Below are positions 3,496 to 14,641 of a DNA stretch of 16,194 nucleotides, in pieces. This DNA is from Calditrichia bacterium (GTDB taxonomy: Bacteria; Calditrichota; Calditrichia; JAJRVZ01). Numbering within the stretch: position 1 is the first letter of the stretch; every line of letters starts with the position of its first letter. A model generated the notes under the pieces. It had not been told where the DNA came from, did no database searches, and saw only the letters and a list, made by a program, of their open reading frames with translations. Location of the stretch: the NCBI GenBank assembly GCA_963777955.1, contig CAVZSQ010000005.1, forward strand, positions 1 to 16,194, read 5' to 3'. Made by a program: the position numbers and the translations under genes.

Positions 3496-3614
3496 TGCGA
3501 AACCTTGAACAGGTACCTGAACCATACAACCAGTATCATCCAAAGTGCCATGAAAAATTGAGAGAATAAAATAATTATTGGGCAAATACAAAATCTGTGG
3601 AAGGAGATAAGATT

Positions 3615-3864
3615 ATGAAGATAGCCTTGATCATTGTGCGAAGTTTAATGGGGCTTTTATTCCTGTTTTCAGCGATTGCCTTTCTGACGGGAAGGTTTGT
3701 GCCCCTGGCGGCTGTATTGATTTCTCCCATCATCAGTAAATATTTTTTTTGTACATGCTTTTCTTGGTCCGGAAGGTTTACCGGTGGCGATATTTTTAGT
3801 GCTGGCAAACTCGTTTGTGATTTATAACCACCGGGAAAGTTACAAGCCGTTATTAAAGATTTAA
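3615..3864 (+). pseudogene. DoxX-like membrane protein remnant (apparent internal deletion plus +1 frameshift near 3735)
   Basis: AAGGAG 3601-3606, ATG 3615. MKIALIIVRSLMGLLFLFS-AIAFLTGRFVPLAAVLISPII continues in the +1 frame as VNIFFVHAFLGPEGLPVAIFLVLANSFVIYNHRESYKPLLKI* (TAA 3862-3864). Confidence 0.65.
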
Positions 3865-3918: not shown

Positions 3919-4320
3919 ATGTTATATTATCTCAAACTTTACCTGGCAACGCTCGTCGCTTTCTTTGCCATTGATATGGTCTGGCTTGGCCTGGTGGCAC
4001 GTTCGTTTTATCGAAGACATCTTGGCTTTCTTCTGGCTCCTAATCCCAACTGGCTGGCGGCAATAATTTTTTATCTGTTATTTATTTTGGGAATCTTGCT
4101 GTTTGTGGTTCTACCCGGATTAAAAGGCAACTCGCTCAGGACAACCTTGCTGTACGCGGCTCTATTCGGACTCATCACCTATGCTACGTATGATCTGACC
4201 AATCTGGCCACTGTTAAAAACTGGCCGGTACTGGTCACCGTGGTGGATCTGATCTGGGGAACGGTCTTGAGCGTAGCGGTCAGCTGGGTTGGTTTTATGG
4301 CAGGCAAGTGGCTGAGTTAG
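3919..4320 (+). CDS. DUF2177 family membrane protein
   Basis: FFAIDMVWLG, AAIIFY, YATYDLTNLAT..NWP...VDLIWG motifs; 133 aa, about 4 TM segments. Confidence 0.88.
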   Translation: MLYYLKLYLATLVAFFAIDMVWLGLVARSFYRRHLGFLLAPNPNWLAAIIFYLLFILGILLFVVLPGLKGNSLRTTLLYAALFGLITYATYDLTNLATVKNWPVLVTVVDLIWGTVLSVAVSWVGFMAGKWLS

Positions 4321-4353
4321 GGCAGCATTGTGGATCTGAAAACCAGGGGGGAT

Positions 4354-6132
4354 ATGCAAATCAGGTATCTTGACAGTAACCGGTTATACTACGCTTTTTT
4401 AGCCGGCGGGGCAGCCGTTATCAGCAATCAGAATTATTTGAACAAAATCAATGTGTTCCCGGTAGCCGATGCCGATACAGGTACCAATATGGCTTCGACC
4501 ATGCGTTCGATCGTGGAAGGTACCCGAATTTATCCCTCGGTGAAAGATACGTTCCGCTCCATCGCTGATGCCGCTTTAATGGGAGCCAGAGGCAACTCCG
4601 GCATTATTTTCGCCCAGTTTATTCATGGTTTGAGCACGGAAATTCAACACGAAAAACGTATTATGGCTGCAGGTCTCGCTAATTGCTTAAATAAAGCGGT
4701 AGGGTATGCTTATGAATCTATTTTAGAGCCTGTGGAAGGAACCATGCTGACGGTAATGAAAGATTGGGCGCAGGCAATTAAGAAATACGCTGAAAAGAGC
4801 AATGATATCGTGGAAGTTTTACATCAATCTTTCATCACGGCCCAAAAGTCCTTAGCCGAGACACCTCAAAAACTTAAGATTCTGGCTGAGTCCGGGGTTG
4901 TCGATGCCGGAGCAAAAGGTTTTGTTGATTTCCTGGAAGGAATTAGCAAATATATCACCCATGGGAAATTAAAGGACATTTCAAAAGCAACACTGACCTG
5001 GTTTGATTCAAAAATTCATCCGGCAGGAAATTCAAAAGAGATTAAATATGGATATTGTTCCGAAGCAATTATCACCGGCAGCAAGCTGGACCCGAAAGAT
5101 TTCCAAAGACAATTTTCTGCCTATGGTGATTCTCTAGTCGTAGCGGGTTCTAAAGAAAAACTCCACCTGCATATTCATACCAACCAGCCGGCAGAACTCT
5201 TTTATGACATTAAAGATTACGGCGACATTGCTCAGATCAAAGTTGATGATATGAAGAAGCAATATGAGGTAAGCCGAACCCGGAAATATCCCGTCGCTCT
5301 GGTAACCGATTCCGCCTGCGATATTCCCGAAGAAATGATTAAAAAATATCAGATTCATATCCTGCCCTTTCAGGTGTCCTTTGGGAACAACCTGTTTCTG
5401 GATAAACTCACGATGACTTCCGAGCAATTTTACCAGATGCTCAAAACTGATAAAAGCCATCCTAAAAGTGCACAACCAGGTTATAAAAACATCCAGAACC
5501 TGTTTGCCTTTCTAAGCAGTCATTACGAATCAATAATCGCTGTACATATTTCCGATAAACTCAGCGGAGTCTTTCAGCAAAGTTTGATAGCGGGGAATAG
5601 AATAAAAAACAAACCCATCACGGTTATCAATTCCCGTCATCTTTCTGTTTCCGAGGGTCTGCTGGTCATGCGTATCGCCCAGGCTATCGAGACCGGTTTA
5701 ACTCACGATGCAATCATATTAAAATCTGGTGAATGGATCGATAAAATCAAAATATATGTGGATGTCAATTCGTTAAAGTATATGGTACGCGGCGGCAGGG
5801 TAAGTCATCTGAAAGGTTTAGTCGCTAAATTATTAAATTTAAAACCCATTGTAAGTCTGGATTCTGAGGGGAAAAGTATCGCCTTCGGCAAATCTTTCAG
5901 CCGGAAGGGGAATATGAAAAAAATCATCAATATAATTTCTGATATGAAAGACAAAGGTGAAATATGGAATTATGCAATTGTTCACTCCCAGGTACCGGAA
6001 AGGGCTGCTGTCTATGCAGAAAAATTGACCCGGATTCTTGATCTGCAGCCCGCGTACATTATGGACATATCACCTGTTGTCGGTGTCCACAACGGTATCG
6101 GCGCAGTGGGCATAGCTGTGATGTATCAATAA
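4354..6132 (+). CDS. DAK2 (FakA-like) - DegV (FakB-like) fusion, putative single-chain fatty acid kinase
   Basis: FakA motifs INVFPVADADTGTNM, GARGNSGII, PVEGTMLTV, GVVDAGAKG, YGYCSE...HLHIHT; DegV motifs VTDSACD, SAQP, ISDKLSG, RGGR, LKPIV, GVHNG. ATG 4354 after AGGGGGG is preferred to GTG 4330. Confidence 0.88.
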   Translation: MQIRYLDSNRLYYAFLAGGAAVISNQNYLNKINVFPVADADTGTNMASTMRSIVEGTRIYPSVKDTFRSIADAALMGARGNSGIIFAQFIHGLSTEIQHEKRIMAAGLANCLNKAVGYAYESILEPVEGTMLTVMKDWAQAIKKYAEKSNDIVEVLHQSFITAQKSLAETPQKLKILAESGVVDAGAKGFVDFLEGISKYITHGKLKDISKATLTWFDSKIHPAGNSKEIKYGYCSEAIITGSKLDPKDFQRQFSAYGDSLVVAGSKEKLHLHIHTNQPAELFYDIKDYGDIAQIKVDDMKKQYEVSRTRKYPVALVTDSACDIPEEMIKKYQIHILPFQVSFGNNLFLDKLTMTSEQFYQMLKTDKSHPKSAQPGYKNIQNLFAFLSSHYESIIAVHISDKLSGVFQQSLIAGNRIKNKPITVINSRHLSVSEGLLVMRIAQAIETGLTHDAIILKSGEWIDKIKIYVDVNSLKYMVRGGRVSHLKGLVAKLLNLKPIVSLDSEGKSIAFGKSFSRKGNMKKIINIISDMKDKGEIWNYAIVHSQVPERAAVYAEKLTRILDLQPAYIMDISPVVGVHNGIGAVGIAVMYQ

Positions 6133-6144
6133 GCAGGAATAAAT

Positions 6145-6916
6145 ATGTTTCTAGCAATTTTATACTCCGCACTAACAATATTGATCTATATGCTCGGTTG
6201 GTTTATTGCCGCCCTGCTCAAAAAAGATAATAGTATTGTGGATATTGCCTGGGGACTGGGTTTTGTAGTGATTGCGGCTGTAAATCTCCTCATGAGTGAG
6301 ACATGGTCCGGACGGCAGTTGCTCATAACGGTTTTAATCGTTATCTGGGCCTTCCGGCTGGCCGGGCACATCATCGTCCGCAACCGGGGCCGGGGAGAGG
6401 ATTTTCGCTATGCAAAATGGCGTGAAGAATGGGGCAAGAATGTAATCATAAAAACATTTATTAATGTTTTTATGTTACAAGGACTTTTTATGTTGATCAT
6501 CGCCTATCCGATCATTCTGGTTAATTGTACGGCACAAAAAGAATTAAATTTTTTAGATTTATTGGGATTAGCAGTCTGGTTAACAGGCTTTTTCTTTGAA
6601 TCCGTGGGGGATTATCAATTATATAAGTTCAAAAAGGACCGCTCCAACAAAGGGAAGATCATGACTTCAGGATTGTGGAAATATACGCGCCATCCCAACT
6701 ATTTTGGGGAAGCAGCCAGCTGGTGGGGTATTTTTCTGATTGCTCTATCGGCACCTTATGGCTTGACGGCCATTATCAGTCCCCTGGTCATAACATTCTT
6801 ATTGTTAAAAGTTTCCGGAGTACCCATGCTGGAGCAGAAATATAAAGATAATCCTGAATTTATGGAATATGCCGGAAAGACCAGCAGCTCTTATTCCCTG
6901 GTTTCCTCATTCGTAA
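6145..6916 (+). CDS. DUF1295 family membrane protein (steroid 5-alpha-reductase-like C-terminal region); true C-terminus probably in the +1 frame
   Basis: [46 protein letters not shown]; family-typical LIPWFP tail at 6890-6907 in the +1 frame with TAA 6914-6916 (ORF as read ends at 6924). Confidence 0.88.
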
Positions 6917-7041
6917 GATACTGATTATATATAACGATAAACGGATTATATACTTTTGGCTTATCAATGCAGCAGTTTTTAATCCACGCTCATGTGTTTC
7001 AACATCACAGCTGGTCGGTACAGCTGCTGACAATTTATTGT

Positions 7042-7082
7042 TTGCATTGGTTCGAATTTAGGTCTATATTTGGACTTAGATT
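7042..7082 (+). promoter_or_regulatory. Probable TA promoter with overlapping operator inverted repeat
   Basis: TTGCAT (7042-7047) N17 TATATT (7065-7070); inverted repeat AATTTAGGTCTA-tatt-TGGACTTAGATT (7055-7082) spans the -10, 22 nt before the antitoxin ATG. Confidence 0.65.
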
Positions 7083-7104
7083 TAAAATGTATAAGGAATA
7101 AATT

Positions 7105-7380
7105 ATGAAAAATATAAGTGTAGCAAATGATATAGTACCTATTGGTGAATTCAAAACCCGAATATCCAAATGGATTAATAAATCCAGAAAAACAAGACAT
7201 CCGATTGTCATAACCCAAAATGGAAAACCTGCAGCGGTAGTGCTTACTCCCACGGACTTCGATCAACTTCAGGAACTCAAGCAATTTACCGAATCAATTT
7301 CCCGGGGTTTGGCTGATGCTGATAAAGGAAAACTGTTAACTATACCTGAACTCATTGCTGAATTGGCAAAAAGAAGATAA
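7105..7380 (+). CDS. Type II antitoxin, Phd/YefM family
   Basis: 91 aa; IVPIGEFKT...HPIVITQNGKPAAVV; SISRGLADADKGK; lies directly upstream of a RelE/ParE toxin. Confidence 0.9.
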   Translation: MKNISVANDIVPIGEFKTRISKWINKSRKTRHPIVITQNGKPAAVVLTPTDFDQLQELKQFTESISRGLADADKGKLLTIPELIAELAKRR

Positions 7381-7392
7381 AACAGATCGCTG

Positions 7393-7689
7393 ATGAAACT
7401 GCTGTGGACGCATGAAGCATTAGCACGATTAATTGAAATCGAAGGATATATTGCAGATGATAGTCCGGTCAGGGCAAGAGAATTCAGTGCCCGACTTATC
7501 AAACGTGCCCAATCAATATCAAACAATCCACGAAAAGGAAGAATCGTTCCGGAATTTTCTTTACCTGCTCTGAGAGAATTGATATATAAAAAGTATCGAA
7601 TTGTTTATAGAATTCAAAATAATACTATAGAGATTTTAACCGTATTCGAGTCCCACAGTCTTATTCGAGTAAAAGAACTAATAAAATAA
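7393..7689 (+). CDS. Type II toxin, RelE/ParE family
   Basis: 98 aa; LLWTHEALARLIEIEGYIADDSP, PRKGRIVPE, LRELIY..YRIVYRI, IEILTVF. Confidence 0.9.
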   Translation: MKLLWTHEALARLIEIEGYIADDSPVRAREFSARLIKRAQSISNNPRKGRIVPEFSLPALRELIYKKYRIVYRIQNNTIEILTVFESHSLIRVKELIK

Positions 7690-7697
7690 TAGATGGA

Positions 7698-7786
7698 GTA
7701 CAACCGATCTCCTGTACAGAATGCCTGAGCAGTGACCTTGAGTTATTATATATATTGAACGGCATCTGTGGACAGGAGCGTTAAAC
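7698..7786. repeat. Imperfect inverted repeat (attC-like or regulatory hairpin) between toxin and blc
   Basis: Arms CTCCTGTACAGAATGCC (7709-7725) and GGCATCTGTGGACAGGAG (7761-7778) pair with small bulges; flanked by GTACAAC (7698-7704) and GTTAAAC (7780-7786). Confidence 0.5.
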
Positions 7787-7799
7787 ATGGGAGGCGAAT

Positions 7800-8318
7800 A
7801 TGGAGATAAAAAAGTTATTAATAATACTAATTGTATTCATGATCGGCTGTGCGGGGATCCCTGAAAATGTTAAACCTGTTGATGATTTCAAATTGGAGAG
7901 ATACCTGGGCAAGTGGTATGAAATTGCCAGGATGGATCATTCCTTTGAACGGGGTTTGACTAAAGTAACTGCAGATTACAGTCTGCGGGATGATGGCGGG
8001 GTTCGGGTATTGAATCGCGGCTATTCTGTTGAAGATAGTTCGTGGAATGAAGCCGAAGGGAAGGCTTATTTTGTTAAAGAACCGGATCAGGGTTATCTGA
8101 AAGTTTCCTTCTTCGGCCCTTTTTATGGTTCGTATATCGTTTTTGAACTTGACCACGAAAAATATCAGTATGCACTGGTTTGCGGTCCTAAAAAATCCTA
8201 TTTATGGATTCTGGCCAGAGAACCGCTGTTAAAAGACGATATAAAAGATATGCTCATTGCCAAAGCAGCAGCAGCGGGTTTTGACACGGGCAAACTTCTC
8301 TTTGTCAGACACGACTAA
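7800..8318 (+). CDS. blc: Bacterial lipocalin, outer-membrane lipoprotein Blc family
   Basis: Lipobox MIG-C; RYLGKWYEIAR, FERGL, LKVSFFGPFYGSY, YLWILAR; GGAGG RBS. Confidence 0.92.
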   Translation: MEIKKLLIILIVFMIGCAGIPENVKPVDDFKLERYLGKWYEIARMDHSFERGLTKVTADYSLRDDGGVRVLNRGYSVEDSSWNEAEGKAYFVKEPDQGYLKVSFFGPFYGSYIVFELDHEKYQYALVCGPKKSYLWILAREPLLKDDIKDMLIAKAAAAGFDTGKLLFVRHD

Positions 8319-8353: not shown

Positions 8354-8962
8354 ATGGCATCAGGAATTATTAAATTGATCCATAAACTCATCACCTTTTT
8401 CACTCCTCCTAAAAATTGGCAGATACCTGTCATCGTGATCCTGGGGATCCTGGGAGGTCTGGCCCTGCTGATTCTGCGCCTTTCCAACGCCGCATCGTAT
8501 CTCTCCGACAATCCCCGCACCTGCGTCAACTGCCATGTGATGGCTCCCGAGTACGCCACCTGGCAGCACAGCAGTCACACGCGGGTGGCCACCTGCAACG
8601 ACTGCCATGTACCGCAGGATAACCTCTTGCGCAAGTACGCTTTCAAAGCCACTGACGGGATGCGGCATTCCTATGTATTTACCTTCCGCCTCGAACCGCA
8701 GGTCATTCAGATCAAGCCGGCGGGAAAATCAGCCGTGCAGGAGAATTGCATCCGCTGCCATACTGCCCTGCTTGATCGTGTTACCATCCGGAACATATCG
8801 CTGAAAGATTTTCGTCACGGTCAGGGGCAGCTGTGCTGGGACTGTCACCGCGAGACACCTCATGGCCGAGTACACAGTCTGGCCTCGGCACCGTATGCGC
8901 GGGTACCGCGGCTGACTCCGGCCATGCCGGAATGGATCGCAAAGTATATTAAGAAGCGTTGA
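8354..8962 (+). CDS. nrfH: Cytochrome c nitrite reductase small subunit (NapC/NirT-family tetraheme quinol dehydrogenase)
   Basis: N-terminal TM helix; SYLSDNPRTCVNCHVM; four CXXCH motifs (CVNCH, CNDCH, CIRCH, CWDCH); directly upstream of nrfA. Confidence 0.95.
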   Translation: MASGIIKLIHKLITFFTPPKNWQIPVIVILGILGGLALLILRLSNAASYLSDNPRTCVNCHVMAPEYATWQHSSHTRVATCNDCHVPQDNLLRKYAFKATDGMRHSYVFTFRLEPQVIQIKPAGKSAVQENCIRCHTALLDRVTIRNISLKDFRHGQGQLCWDCHRETPHGRVHSLASAPYARVPRLTPAMPEWIAKYIKKR

Positions 8963-8995
8963 TCATGACATTGCTCATTTGTACAGGAGAAAATA

Positions 8996-10466
8996 ATGGC
9001 AACCATTCGTGAACGGATTCGCACCACACCGTGGCTCGGCTGGGTCCTTTTTGCCGCTACGGTGATAATTGTATTTCTGATCGGCCTGTTCGGCGCCTCG
9101 ATCATGGAGCGGCGGGCCGAGGAGGTTCAACTCTTCCAGGTGGTCAAACCCATGGCCCAATGGGAACCGCGGAACGAAGTATGGGGAGAAAACTTCCCGC
9201 GGGAATACGAATCGTATATCGCCACCCGCGACACCTCGTTTTCCAGCAAATACGGCGGCTCGCGTATGCGGGACATCCTGCGTGATGATCCGCGGGCAGT
9301 GATCCTCTGGGCGGGTTATGCATTTTCGCGCGATTACAACCAGGCCCGCGGGCATTACTACGCCATCGCTGATATCCGCCAGACGCTGCGAACCGGTGTG
9401 CCGCAGCCGGCAACCTGCTGGACCTGCAAAAGCACCGATGTACCCAGGGTTATGGACAAAATGGGACCGGCCGGTTTTTATAAATCTGCCTGGGCAGACC
9501 TGGGGGCGGAAATCGTCAACCACATCGGCTGCCAGGATTGTCATGACCCAAAAAGCCTGAACCTGCGGATTACCCGTCCCGCACTGGCGGAGGCGTTTCA
9601 ACGACTGGGGCAGGATGTAAATAAGGCCACTCATCAGGAGATGCGTTCTCTGGTTTGCGCGCAATGTCATGTCGAATACTATTTTAAAGGCGAACACGAT
9701 AAGTACCTGACCTTCCCCTGGGATGACGGCTTCAGTGCCGATTCCATGGAAGCATATTATGATAATAATCAGCACGTTGATTTTGTGCACAAACTGAGCA
9801 GAACCCCGGTCCTGAAAGCGCAGCATCCTGATTATGAGTTATATCGTACCGGTATCCACGCCCAGCGCGGTATCTCCTGCGCGGACTGCCACATGCCCTA
9901 CCGCAGCGAAGGGGGCGTAAAATATACTAATCACTGGATGCGCAGTCCGCTGGCCAACATCGCCGGGTCGTGCCAGGTCTGTCACCGCGAATCCGAAGAG
10001 GAATTAAAGAAAAATGTTTATGACCGGCAGGACCGGGTCAAGGAACTGCTGCTGCTGGCCGAGGACGCTCTGGTGCGGGCCCATCTCGAGGCTGAATATG
10101 CCTGGAGCAAAGGTGCCGTGGACGATCAGATGCAACCGGTACTCAACCTGATCCGTCATGCCCAGTGGCGCTGGGACTGGGTTGCCGCGGCTAACGCAGT
10201 CGGATTCCATTCGCCTGCCGAAGCGTTGCGCACGCTCGGTACGTCAATTCAGAAATCCCAGGAAGCGCATGCCGAACTCGTACGAATCCTGGCCAGACAC
10301 GGGATATTGGAACCTTATAATTTGCCCGATGTCTCGACTAAAGAGAAAGCGCAGCAGTATGTCGGACTGGACATGACCAAGGCCCGGGAGGAAAAGGAAA
10401 AGTTTCTAAAGGAGGTAGTTCTCAGCCTGGGATGAGCAAGCGAAGGCACGGGAAGCGAAATATTAA
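8996..10466 (+). CDS. nrfA: Ammonia-forming pentaheme cytochrome c552 nitrite reductase; last ~14 codons in the +1 frame
   Basis: CWTCK active-site heme motif plus CQDCH, CAQCH, CADCH, CQVCH; CHVEYY and KAQHP motifs; AQWRWD; AGGAG RBS. ORF as read stops at 10435; the +1 frame gives AWDEQAKAREAKY* ending 10466. Confidence 0.95.
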
Positions 10467-10468
10467 AT

Positions 10469-11639
10469 ATGAATAAAATGAATTCATCTTTAAAAACAGG
10501 TATACGAATTTTTAACGGTGTTGCTATTTTTACCGGTGTAATTGCTCTGTTCATGCTGGGTACAGGCAACTGGGGAGGGTTTTTCGGTACCCTGATAATC
10601 AGTTTGGGTTTTTTCGGATTTGCCTGGGCCGGGCAACGTTTGTTTTCAGGTGATGATAACCCTAACCCGCGACAGGGGGTCAGTCAGATAATCGCTGTTA
10701 TATTCGGCGGTGCCGGCGGGATGATGCTGATCGGCAGTGTCTGGTTACTGGTGGAGGGGGAATTCGGCGGATTCATCGGACTGGGCATATTCGGACTGGT
10801 TTTCTGTGCGGTAGCCTATTTCGGTTCGCGCCTTTTCGCCATGCCCAAAGGTATGAAGGAAATTCAGGTCGGTACGGCCAGCAGGGAAATCGGTGGTGTA
10901 CTGGGACAATCGGGCCAGCTCAGCGAAACCAGTTTTATGTATGTCGATGAAAAAATGCCGGAGATCGAGATTAAAAAGATGCAGCAAAAATGGACCGAAG
11001 AGCCCTGGACCCAGCGCGAAGATTGGGCGCAGGGAAAAGTGGTTCAGCAGGGACCGGGCAGTATCCGCCTGCTGATGCGGTTTTACGGTAATATGGAATA
11101 TAATTGCCTGCGGTATCGCCGGATTCGGAATAATAAGTGAATGGGGCCAGCCTGACTTCCCCTGGTTTTTGTTTATTTTTCCCCTTGCCGGACTCGCCCT
11201 GGTGATCTGGACTGTACTTACCTGGATTCGCCGGCGAAAATTCGGAATCAGTATTGTCGATTTGAAAACCGTTCCGTTTTACCTGGGTGATTGGCTGCGC
11301 GGTACCGTGCATACCGGCGTCCGGGTGCGCAATGAACCGGCTAAAGAATTCAAAGTACGGCTGGTTTGCGCGCAGCGAACTTCGGTACTCGACTCAGAAG
11401 GGGAGCGCAGGGTTTCTGAGAAGAATGTCTGGAGCACGGAACAAAAAGTTTATGGCAGTATCGCTGCCAACTCTGATACTTTCGATGTTGCCATCAATCT
11501 GGCCATACCAGGACATCTGCCGCCCACGGCCTTACAACCGGAAGATGATCGGAATCTGTGGCGCCTGGAAATCTCTGCAGCAACCAGAGGCTTGGATTAC
11601 GCCGCGCAATTTGAAGTCCCGGTGTACAATAAGGATTAA
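10469..11639 (+). CDS. Uncharacterised multi-pass membrane protein (~389 aa), split into two ORFs by a +1 frameshift near 11077
   Basis: Removing one base in CTGATGCGG gives LLIGFTVIWNIIACGIAGFGIISEWGQPDFPWFLFIFPLAGL, which reads without a stop into ORF 11169-11639. Confidence 0.7.
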
Positions 11640-13055: not shown

Positions 13056-13892
13056 ATGATAAAAAAAATGATATTACTTCCATTGATAGTCATTTTTGAA
13101 ATGGCTTGTTCATCAAATGGTACAGATGCTAAACCCCAAGCTATGCGTATTATGAAGTATGATGAAGTAGCCTTACCAAATGAGGAGGTGCGAGCCGGGA
13201 ACAATGCTTCACTGCCGCGTATGGTAATAAAGAAGGGCTCATTATTGTTAAGAGTAAATAACTATCAGACTTCCTTTGAACTGGTCAAAACAATAGTTCT
13301 GCAGGAGCAAGGATTTATCGTCTCGACACAAGTCGACCAGTATGAAGATAAGGCCACCGGGGGGAATCTAATTATAAAAGTACCATCCGCCCGTTTTGAT
13401 ACAACCATGAGTAAATTAAAATCCATTGCCGATCGCATTGAGAATGAATCCATCAGCGGAAATGATGTCACCGAAGAATTTTATGATCTGCAAGCTCGTC
13501 TGGTTAACAAACGCAAGGTGGAGCAGAGGTTTCAGGAAATTCTGAAGACCGCCAAAACCACCAAAGAAATATTAGAGGTTGAACAGGCTCTGGGAGAAAT
13601 CCGTGAAGAGATTGAACGGATGGAAGGACGCAGTCGTTTTCTTTCAGATCAGGTTAATCTTTCAACTATAGATTTGAAGATTTATGAAACTGATTATGGT
13701 TATTATTATGGCGATCGTACTTTCTTTGCAAAAATCGTTCAAGGATTTAAGAAAGGTCTGACCGTTTTTGGTGATGTGTTGAGTGTACTGATTGTTCTGG
13801 TAATCGCCACAATCCCCATCTGGATTCTTCTGGCATTACTAATATTTATTAGCTTAAAAGTATTCAAGCGTTACAAATCAAAAAGGAAATGA
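13056..13892 (+). CDS. DUF4349 domain-containing protein (probable lipoprotein with C-terminal TM segment)
   Basis: RMVIKKGSL, IKVPSARFD, DVTEEFYDLQARL, ILEVEQAL..IREEIERMEGR..FL.DQVNLSTI; N-terminal MA-C; hydrophobic C-terminus. Confidence 0.85.
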   Translation: MIKKMILLPLIVIFEMACSSNGTDAKPQAMRIMKYDEVALPNEEVRAGNNASLPRMVIKKGSLLLRVNNYQTSFELVKTIVLQEQGFIVSTQVDQYEDKATGGNLIIKVPSARFDTTMSKLKSIADRIENESISGNDVTEEFYDLQARLVNKRKVEQRFQEILKTAKTTKEILEVEQALGEIREEIERMEGRSRFLSDQVNLSTIDLKIYETDYGYYYGDRTFFAKIVQGFKKGLTVFGDVLSVLIVLVIATIPIWILLALLIFISLKVFKRYKSKRK

Positions 13893-14591
13893 AAATGCAT
13901 AAACCCCACTTTGAAATTCATTATGCGGAGAGAATTGGCTGGCTGCGCGCGGCGGTGCTGGGTGCCAATGATGGTATAGTATCAACGGCCAGCCTGGTGG
14001 TTGGTGTGGCTGCCGCCCAGACTTCTCACAGCGGCGTACTGGTCGCCGGTGTGGCCGGACTGGTAGCCGGGGCCATGTCCATGGCCGCCGGAGAATATGT
14101 GTCGGTCAGTTCCCAGGCCGATACCGAAAAAGCAGACCTGGCACGTGAAGGCAAGGAACTGGAAACCGACTGGGCTGCCGAGCATGCGGAACTGGCAGGT
14201 ATCTATGTCAAACGCGGTCTTGAACCGCAACTGGCCGGACAGGTGGCAGAGCAGTTTATGGCCAAAGATGCACTGGCAGCTCATGCCCGTGATGAACTGG
14301 GACTGTCGGAGACGCACAGTGCCCGACCGATCCAGGCGGCCATGGCTTCGGCTGCAACCTTCGCTGTCGGTGCGGCACTGCCGCTGCTCGTAACACTGAT
14401 CAGTCCATTATCAAAGGTCATCCCTTTTGTGGTCGTGAGTTCCCTTATCTTTCTGGCCCTGATGGGCGGTTTACAGCCCCTGGATGGGGGGAGCAAAACT
14501 GGTGGTGGGGACTGTGCGGGTGACTTTCTGGGGAGCCCTGGCTATGGGGCTCACCGCTGCTGTGGGAGCACTCTTTGGTACGGTTGCCTGA
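13889..14591 (+). CDS. VIT1/CCC1 family Fe2+/Mn2+ transporter; last TM helix in the +1 frame
   Basis: WLRAAVLGANDGIVS, AGAMSMAAGEYVSVSSQAD, AHARDELG, PIQAA; +1 frame from about 14481 reads WMGGAKLVVGTVRVTFWGALAMGLTAAVGALFGTVA* (TGA 14589-14591). Confidence 0.88.
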
Positions 14592-14625
14592 AGCAATCCA
14601 TGAACAGGGTACAATATAGCCTGGT

Positions 14626-14641
14626 TTAAAGTACACTTTAA
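14626..14641. promoter_or_regulatory. Perfect 7-2-7 palindrome TTAAAGT-AC-ACTTTAA, putative transcription-factor operator
   Basis: Exact dyad in the intergenic gap, 26 nt upstream of the carboxylesterase ATG. Confidence 0.5.

Follow-up and report, generated by a model that had tools for sequence, protein, structure and literature searches.

A single-chain fatty-acid kinase and a DUF1295 membrane protein as the conserved core of a possible lipid salvage or repair unit

Introduction

Does a run of lipid-related genes on a small contig of a Calditrichia bacterium form a functional unit and, if so, what would that unit do? The window, the whole 16,194-nucleotide stretch of DNA analysed here, is the entire contig C5 of a 4.2 Mb assembly that is 92% complete. 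It carries in succession genes for a DUF2177 protein, a protein uniting Dak2 and DegV domains in one chain (hereafter the fusion), a DUF1295 protein and, beyond a toxin–antitoxin stretch, a Blc-type lipocalin (Table 1). An earlier note on this DNA took the four as a lipid module, and Pfam calls and coordinates confirm that the named genes are present and co-oriented, the first three with gaps of 33 and 12 nucleotides (nt). Because all 19 annotated genes of the contig lie on the same (+) strand and 13 of the 18 gaps between them are shorter than 60 nt, co-orientation and short gaps are uninformative at this locus; the evidence for a unit is conservation in other genomes, since the local arrangement alone shows nothing.

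That evidence identifies the fused kinase directly followed by DUF1295 as the conserved core, with DUF2177 as a frequent third gene and Blc as an occasional one. We favour, at a little under an even chance, a dedicated step of lipid salvage or repair that includes the reduction of a double bond. The host is most likely diderm, given that the nearest named relative of the window fusion (88% identity) is from Calditrichota and that lpxC is present in the genome. Published work is cited here from excerpts of the papers, to which our statements about it are limited.

Conservation of the gene pair

Three samples were compared. The first comprises 65 fusion loci, five from relatives and 60 of 61 listed loci (L034, a duplicate of L029, was left out); it excludes the window and a second copy of nearly the whole window on contig C3 of the same assembly (11558–27765, 92–96% identical), is rich in close kin and includes short contigs that make its counts lower bounds. 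DUF1295 lies directly downstream of the fusion in 46 of these 65 loci, or in 46/60 when five loci that end within 600 nt are set aside, usually with a gap of less than 100 nt. In L117, L121 and L122 it follows a fusion on another contig of genomes whose listed locus had none. The record titles name six phyla (Calditrichota, Aminicenantes, Thermotogota, Bacillota, Cloacimonadota and Bacteroidota), with the qualification that phyla are assigned by title and that some 'Eubacteriales' titles cluster with Aminicenantes on the tree and look unreliable. Within 3 kb of the fusion we found DUF1475 (17/65), DUF2177 (15/65), TspO (5/65), PlsY (4/65) and Blc (3/65). DUF2177, the fusion, DUF1295 and Blc occur all together in 0/65, and no cfa-like methylase, desaturase, FAD oxidoreductase, DUF1365 or heliorhodopsin gene was found in any of the 65. 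The co-occurrence anticipated for the fusion thus held for DUF1295 and DUF2177, across six phyla, and largely failed for the lipocalin.

For the second sample Bacillota were drawn evenly (401 genomes), which gave 16 genomes with a fusion, 14 of them new, examined with flanks of 1.5 kb. DUF1295 directly follows 13 of the 14 new fusions (the contig of the 14th ends 36 nt past the gene) and is itself followed by DUF2177 in nine; neither Blc nor heliorhodopsin was found within 1.5 kb of the 14. In the host's own phylum the fusion is patchy: seven of 86 genomes carry it, counting the host, and DUF1295 is missing from the only new case (L216).

The third sample approaches the pair from the other side: of 584 metagenome relatives of DUF1295, the best 80 were taken (L130 and L037 are one and the same DNA). 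The fusion lies directly upstream in 27/80 and any Fak/DegV gene is present in 30/80; other neighbours are DUF2177 (37/80), cfa-like genes (5/80), FAD oxidoreductase (3/80), Blc (5/80, three on the same strand) and heliorhodopsin (1/80). The earlier note described DUF2177 and DUF1295 as recurring with cfa-like methylases, DUF1365 and FAD oxidoreductases. Cfa-like or FAD-oxidoreductase genes do stand beside relatives of DUF1295 or DUF2177 in eight of the 80 loci, and DUF1365 turned up in just one of 55 fusion genomes. Alone or together with DUF2177, DUF1295 is a module whose partner is the kinase in some genomes and a cfa-type cluster in others. One locus (L175:3293–6918) has DUF1295, a cfa-like methyltransferase and the fusion in a single co-oriented row, bridging both contexts.

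At the level of whole genomes, DUF1295 was found in 47/54 genomes with the fusion, compared with 5/26 relatives lacking a whole fusion. DUF2177 was found in 33, PlsY in 50 and Blc in 13 of 55 fusion genomes. Tree distances of the fusion and of DUF1295 are correlated (Mantel r of 0.82, 44 pairs); this was not counted as co-evolution, as kin share both genes.

The fused fatty-acid kinase

Proteins of this kind are named 'DAK2 domain-containing protein' or 'DegV family protein' in databases, and the window kinase scores below the NCBIfam cut-offs for FakA and FakB1. Pfam gives the domain order as FakA_N (Dak2), the FakA middle domain and a complete FakB/DegV domain, with no match to FakA_C; PDB relatives are 7W7H, 7RM7 and 4X9X. 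The catalytic residues listed for Staphylococcus aureus FakA are the ATP/Mg ligands N32, D38, D40, T41, N82 and D185 and a Cys-His-His triad (PMC9136124). The corresponding ligands N33, D39, D41, T42, N81 and D184 and the triad C235, H273 and H275 are kept in 47 of 47 fusions, and the triad also in 17/17 loci examined along with the new Bacillota fusions. The carboxyl-binding residues of FakB, T61, S93, R170 and H266 (PMC10848957), correspond to S372, S404, R482 and H579 of the window protein (numbering from the alignment to 4X9X, minus a 20-residue offset). Across the fusions, position 372 is Ser or Thr in 47/47, and S404 and R482 are each kept in 47/47. Since FakA_C lacks the carboxyl-binding Arg (PMC10848957) and the fusion has it, the fusion's C-terminal domain is a true FakB. 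The Arg by which FakB docks on FakA_C (R202; Arg202/205) is Phe515 in the window protein, and Phe in 38 and Arg in none of the 47 fusions, a loss that fits the disappearance of FakA_C upon fusion. With every functional residue of FakA and FakB present in the window protein, the fatty-acid kinase identity given by the earlier note stands, and the complete conservation of these residues makes it very probable that the predicted kinase activity is real.

The proposed destination of its product was also looked for in the host: plsX (two matches) and plsY are both present, and plsB was not found in the genome. The only DegV matches in the host are the two copies of the fusion. An ordinary FakA is additionally encoded in 21 of 55 other fusion genomes, so that the fusion is a second kinase there. 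That FakAB exists naturally as one chain with no FakA_C is relevant to the question of whether FakA_C accepts the fatty acid or merely docks FakB.

The DUF1295 protein

The model of the window DUF1295 protein (pLDDT, the predicted local distance difference test score, of 93) is most similar to the δ-14 sterol reductase MaSR1 (PDB code 4QUV; Z of 15.4, root-mean-square deviation of 4.0 over 231 aligned residues) and to the steroid reductase SRD5A (PDB code 7C83; Z of 15.3, root-mean-square deviation of 4.1 over 216 aligned residues), with the first unrelated structure at a Z of 7.0. Foldseek ranks the same proteins first, yet with E values above 0.001; a profile search of the PDB returned reductases only, and a structure search of the Atlas gave no usable match outside the family itself. 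D156, N185, Y186 and E189 align with D163, N192, Y193 and E196 of PbSRD5A, which are NADPH ligands (PMC7815742), and the N-Y-x-x-E and Asp positions are nearly invariant among DUF1295 relatives. A fungal member of the superfamily likened to DUF1295, UsgR, is an ene-reductase (PMC8597850), and trans-enoyl-CoA (CoA, coenzyme A) is named among the substrates of the SRD5A family (PMC5656259). The description of DUF1295 as reductase-like in the earlier note agrees with this steroid/sterol-reductase fold, and from the fold of the model and part of a cofactor site we consider DUF1295 probably to be a reductase.

Several features count against that assignment. PbSRD5A N159 is Glu in DUF1295 and R170 is Lys in just 24/40; no counterpart to R226/H230 could be placed, nor could the Q-E-Y motif, and for the N-terminal, catalytic half the alignment to a bacterial SRD5A profile built from three sequences has low confidence. 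The fold is, moreover, common to the methyltransferase ICMT (Z of 11.6 and 11.1), which shares the core of this reductase superfamily (PMC7591894). DUF1295 might accordingly be an S-adenosylmethionine-dependent membrane methyltransferase of the ICMT/PEMT type that methylates a lipid or acyl derivative. The window protein has secondary Pfam matches to PEMT (5.4e-9) and ICMT (7.3e-6), and the ICMT model of NCBIfam is weakly matched by 25 of 49 family members (best 2.9e-8). The reductases nevertheless match better over the whole chain and alone emerge from the PDB profile search, and the N-Y-x-x-E and Asp ligand positions are nearly invariant, which leaves a methyltransferase quite unlikely. Two DUF1295 open frames of 429 residues (L206:1094–2383 and L207:585–1874) possibly encode an extra N-terminal domain.

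DUF2177, DUF1475 and the lipocalin

The DUF2177 model (pLDDT of 88) has four helices and gave no clear relative, with a best Z of 7.9 and no E value below 2 in fold searches, and only DUF2177 clusters in the Atlas. Residues D19, W22, G84, Y91, N95, W113 and G114 are invariant in 49 aligned rows. In two Bacillota lineages DUF1475 is an alternative small membrane protein beside the unit, and the two families never occur together in one fusion locus. A test for remote homology between them by hhalign gave a probability of 0.3%, and a strict replacement of DUF2177 by DUF1475 was rejected, as Halanaerobiales with DUF1475 carry DUF2177 elsewhere in the genome.

The lipocalin has a lipoprotein signal, read from the sequence as Cys17 after a hydrophobic stretch, and an NCBIfam Blc score of 224 bits against a cut-off of 267. 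The earlier note made it the integral first step of a pathway running from fatty-acid capture by the lipocalin through modification or translocation by DUF1295 and DUF2177 to activation by the kinase. A link of blc to the unit does recur in several lineages and in two gene orders: it stands behind DUF1295 on C3 and on the metagenome contig L129, and in front of the fusion in L039, L085, L150, L166 and, at a distance of about 1 kb, L030. The frequencies given above (3/65 loci, 0/14 new Bacillota loci, 13/55 genomes and no locus with all four genes) argue against an integral role, and in the window itself blc is separated from the other genes by an insertion and adjoins nrfHA. Neither the lipocalin as integral first step nor the order of capture, modification and activation is supported, and we consider the four-step scheme very unlikely.

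One Cloacimonadota record (L039:6910–9449) has glutathione peroxidase, blc and the fusion in a row, and another contig of the same genome (L117) has DUF1295 behind the end of a fusion. Together they are the most complete lipid-repair-like arrangement seen.

Proposed mechanism

In the mechanism that we favour, the fusion would, within one protein, bind a free fatty acid through its FakB half and phosphorylate it with its FakA half, giving an acyl-phosphate for PlsY/PlsX. DUF1295, as an NAD(P)H-dependent membrane reductase, would reduce an activated C=C bond in a lipid. Both enzymes may act on the same acyl chains, most likely oxidatively damaged or unusual unsaturated ones, which would be reduced and returned to phospholipid. 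In some diderms Blc would assist from the periplasm as an optional component. The shared unusual or damaged substrate is the weakest step; it is plausible from the linkage of the two genes, from the argument concerning a second kinase and from stress-related genes that recur as neighbours in separate lineages (glutathione peroxidase, catalase, MsrA/MsrB, AhpC, TspO and photolyase). A more specific version, in which the fusion makes the acyl-phosphate of an α,β-unsaturated or oxidised fatty acid and DUF1295 reduces the double bond on the phosphate itself, is a long shot. If true, acyl-phosphate would take the part that CoA plays in the trans-2-enoyl-CoA reductases of the same superfamily, and a lipid-repair chemistry independent of CoA and acyl-carrier protein would be spread among anaerobes of six phyla; DUF1295 would gain a defined substrate and the lipid genes beside heliorhodopsins an explanation.

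Against the favoured mechanism stand the 14 of 60 informative fusion loci without an adjacent DUF1295, the seven of 54 fusion genomes in which no DUF1295 was found and the 50 of 80 DUF1295 loci without a Fak gene (12 of the 50 have less than 400 nt upstream). Each stress neighbour occurs in a minority of loci and is partly clade-bound, and the FakB histidine equivalent to His579 is kept in just 23 of 47 fusions. The host also holds several genes of the acyl-CoA-ligase type and so could perhaps manage ordinary salvage without a kinase. A rival reading is a stress cassette without a shared substrate, in which the fusion performs plain salvage and DUF1295 and DUF2177 have other membrane roles under common regulation. 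DUF2177 and DUF1295 form a pair without any Fak gene in 30/80 loci and keep the company of cfa-like or FAD-oxidoreductase genes in 8/80, and the neighbours include genes for unrelated repair, among them photolyase and pyrimidine-dimer glycosylase. Against this reading stand the order of kinase and DUF1295, which is kept across six phyla and is far tighter than that of any other stress neighbour, and the retention of the fusion beside an ordinary FakA in 21/55 genomes; we regard it as unlikely.

Two gene rows are recorded here for their composition. Six loci of anaerobic Clostridium (L053, L056, L058, L060, L061 and L092) carry the fusion, DUF1295, DUF1475, a Rieske oxygenase-like gene and hemerythrin, the last two being oxygen-handling genes in strict anaerobes. 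In L075, L076 and L083 an α/β-hydrolase (Hydrolase_4) lies directly 5' of the fusion, DUF1295 and DUF2177; such an enzyme could release the fatty acid.

Both DUF1295 and DUF2177 are widespread, algae included, and our searches turned up no activity assigned to either. The near-obligate partnership with a kinase leaves acyl lipids as the candidate substrates for DUF1295, which cultured carriers (psychrophilic Clostridium species and Marinifilum) make testable.

Gene layout and sequence quality

The features of the window are listed in Table 1.

Table 1 Features of the window, with positions counted from its first nucleotide
Feature	Position	Strand	Basis and remarks
Small membrane-protein gene, apparently frameshifted	3597–3861		Frameshift contradicted by short-read contigs
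DUF2177	3919–4320	+	Pfam PF09945, 1.6e-47; small membrane protein with four helices, often the third gene of the unit
Single-chain fatty-acid kinase (Dak2 + FakA-like_M + DegV, one frame)	ATG 4354–6132	+	Pfam; PDB relatives
DUF1295	6145–6924	+	Pfam, 7.7e-79; seven-helix membrane protein, SRD5A/ERG24/ICMT fold; family-type stop 6914–6916
AT-rich strain-level insertion between DUF1295 and blc	6925–7786	.	36% GC; outside the lipid unit
Phd/YefM antitoxin, inside insertion	7105–7380	+	PF02604, 2.8e-16
ParE/RelE-type toxin of type II pair, inside insertion	7393–7689	+	PF05016, 4.7e-17
Blc-type lipocalin lipoprotein	7800–8318	+	PF08212 (Lipocalin_2), 5e-41; occasional companion of the unit
Membrane protein gene, apparently frameshifted	10469–11639		Comparison with C3
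VIT-family gene, apparently frameshifted	13889–14629		Comparison with C3

The Phd/ParE stretch is a real strain-level insertion, unrelated to the lipid unit. It is absent from the C3 copy and from the independent contig L129 (95% identical), in which blc follows DUF1295 after 64 nt; similarity to the window ends at 6917 and returns at 7787 for C3, and ends at 6930 and returns at 7782 for L129. The GC content of the insertion compares with 43% for the three genes 5' of it, and a repeat scan revealed no clear insertion ends. Setting the toxin–antitoxin pair aside, as the earlier note did in placing blc after DUF1295, was correct, because both contigs run from DUF1295 directly into blc. Directly 3' of blc, after 35 nt, lie the nrfH–nrfA cytochrome c nitrite reductase genes (8354–10435). 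Promoter, terminator and repeat scans gave nothing beyond chance (a σ70 scan found ten sites against 14.2 expected by chance).

Several other small contigs of the assembly duplicate larger ones at 83–96%, which suggests mixed strains. The C3 copy has about 1.5 kb of extra DNA between nrfA and the next gene and many one-base indels, and its fusion gene is broken by eight single-base insertions. In the window, DUF1295 has one extra base near 6889 relative to L129, and the C3 copy likewise carries an extra base near the 3' end of this gene; the last dozen residues in the window are out of frame, the family-type ending lying in the other frame. Three more window genes look frameshifted relative to C3 through the gain or loss of one base. 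Short-read contigs, none of which spans 6889 or bridges the insertion, lack the window's extra bases at 3599 and 3734, and the extra bases of the window, including that near 6889, are probably assembly errors.

Comparison with known systems

FakA and FakB of Staphylococcus, Streptococcus and Bacillus share with the fusion the ATP/Mg ligands, the Cys-His-His triad and the Thr/Ser-Ser-Arg-His carboxyl site. The fusion differs in being one chain without FakA_C, in having Phe for the docking Arg, in occurring in diderms and in being often additional to an ordinary FakA. The DUF1295 model has the seven-helix fold of SRD5A (PDB codes 7C83 and 7BW1), MaSR1 (PDB code 4QUV) and UsgR, and some of its residues align with NADPH ligands; it differs from SRD5A and MaSR1 in sequence (13–14% identity in structural alignments) and in the unplaced catalytic motif.

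Relatives of DUF1295 and DUF2177 also stand beside cfa-like or FAD-oxidoreductase genes in a manner that recalls the SigmaE–ChrR clusters, namely the furan fatty-acid genes ufaM, ufaD and ufaO of Rhodobacter (defined in PMC7380195) and the smlt2367–2375 operon of Stenotrophomonas. The latter is a ChrR-controlled cfa operon that includes a lipocalin-family gene, with no DUF names given in the excerpted text (PMC11832516). DUF2177, DUF1295, DUF1365 and CFA2 genes of Chlamydomonas appear in a table of the singlet-oxygen response (PMC4067076). Unlike these clusters, the window has no methylase, desaturase, FAD oxidoreductase or DUF1365 gene detectable by Pfam; the earlier note had observed the absence of the methylase and oxidoreductase. 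The only copies of cfa, DUF1365 and FAD oxidoreductase found in the host assembly lie in the approximately 77 kb start of contig C22 (1–77000), which has 74% GC in a genome of 45%; the cfa and DUF1365 copies were rejected as host genes for this setting, and the stretch is probably foreign, a chimeric join with a high-GC organism. Neither for the fusion nor for DUF1295 or DUF2177 did we find a functional study in a literature search whose coverage left out most subscription journals, and the excerpts of PMC5241685, PMC12594616, PMC13400652 and 10.1101/2021.02.01.429150 contain nothing on them.

The closest precedent is the set of heliorhodopsin neighbours described by Chazan et al. (2021; 10.1101/2021.02.16.431466), who report that DUF2177, DegV and DUF1295 genes are grouped in the neighbourhood of heliorhodopsins, note Dak2–DegV fusions there and propose lipid remodelling or oxidative-damage repair; the excerpted main text gives DUF1295 no activity. 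The three families, the fusion and the proposed role are thus those of the window unit, and the description of the module as 'undescribed' does not hold. The window unit is a heliorhodopsin-free variant of this published neighbourhood. It differs in its most likely diderm host, in the added Blc and in that the tightest link measured is that of the fusion to DUF1295.

Could the unit then be a leftover in this host, belonging elsewhere to a light-response system of heliorhodopsin as its lipid arm? Besides the published association, heliorhodopsin was found in 15/50 fusion genomes and in 6/20 of a later set, where it occurred in six of 14 Bacillota, each time on a contig other than that of the fusion, and in none of six genomes from the host's phylum; one locus (L181) contains heliorhodopsin, DUF1295 and DegV. 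The search that found it in those 15 did not find it in the 92% complete host genome, and it was likewise not found in any of the six fusion-bearing relatives in the phylum or inside the 65 fusion loci. The host has lpxC, and neither the kinase residues nor the aligned reductase residues are damaged. We therefore hold a leftover arm to be highly improbable. What is new relative to the excerpts of Chazan et al. is a unit that stands apart from heliorhodopsin and from the cfa/DUF1365 core, that occurs in a probable diderm and that often coexists with an ordinary FakA; the published heliorhodopsin-neighbour genes are thus separable from heliorhodopsin, suggesting a lipid unit of their own.

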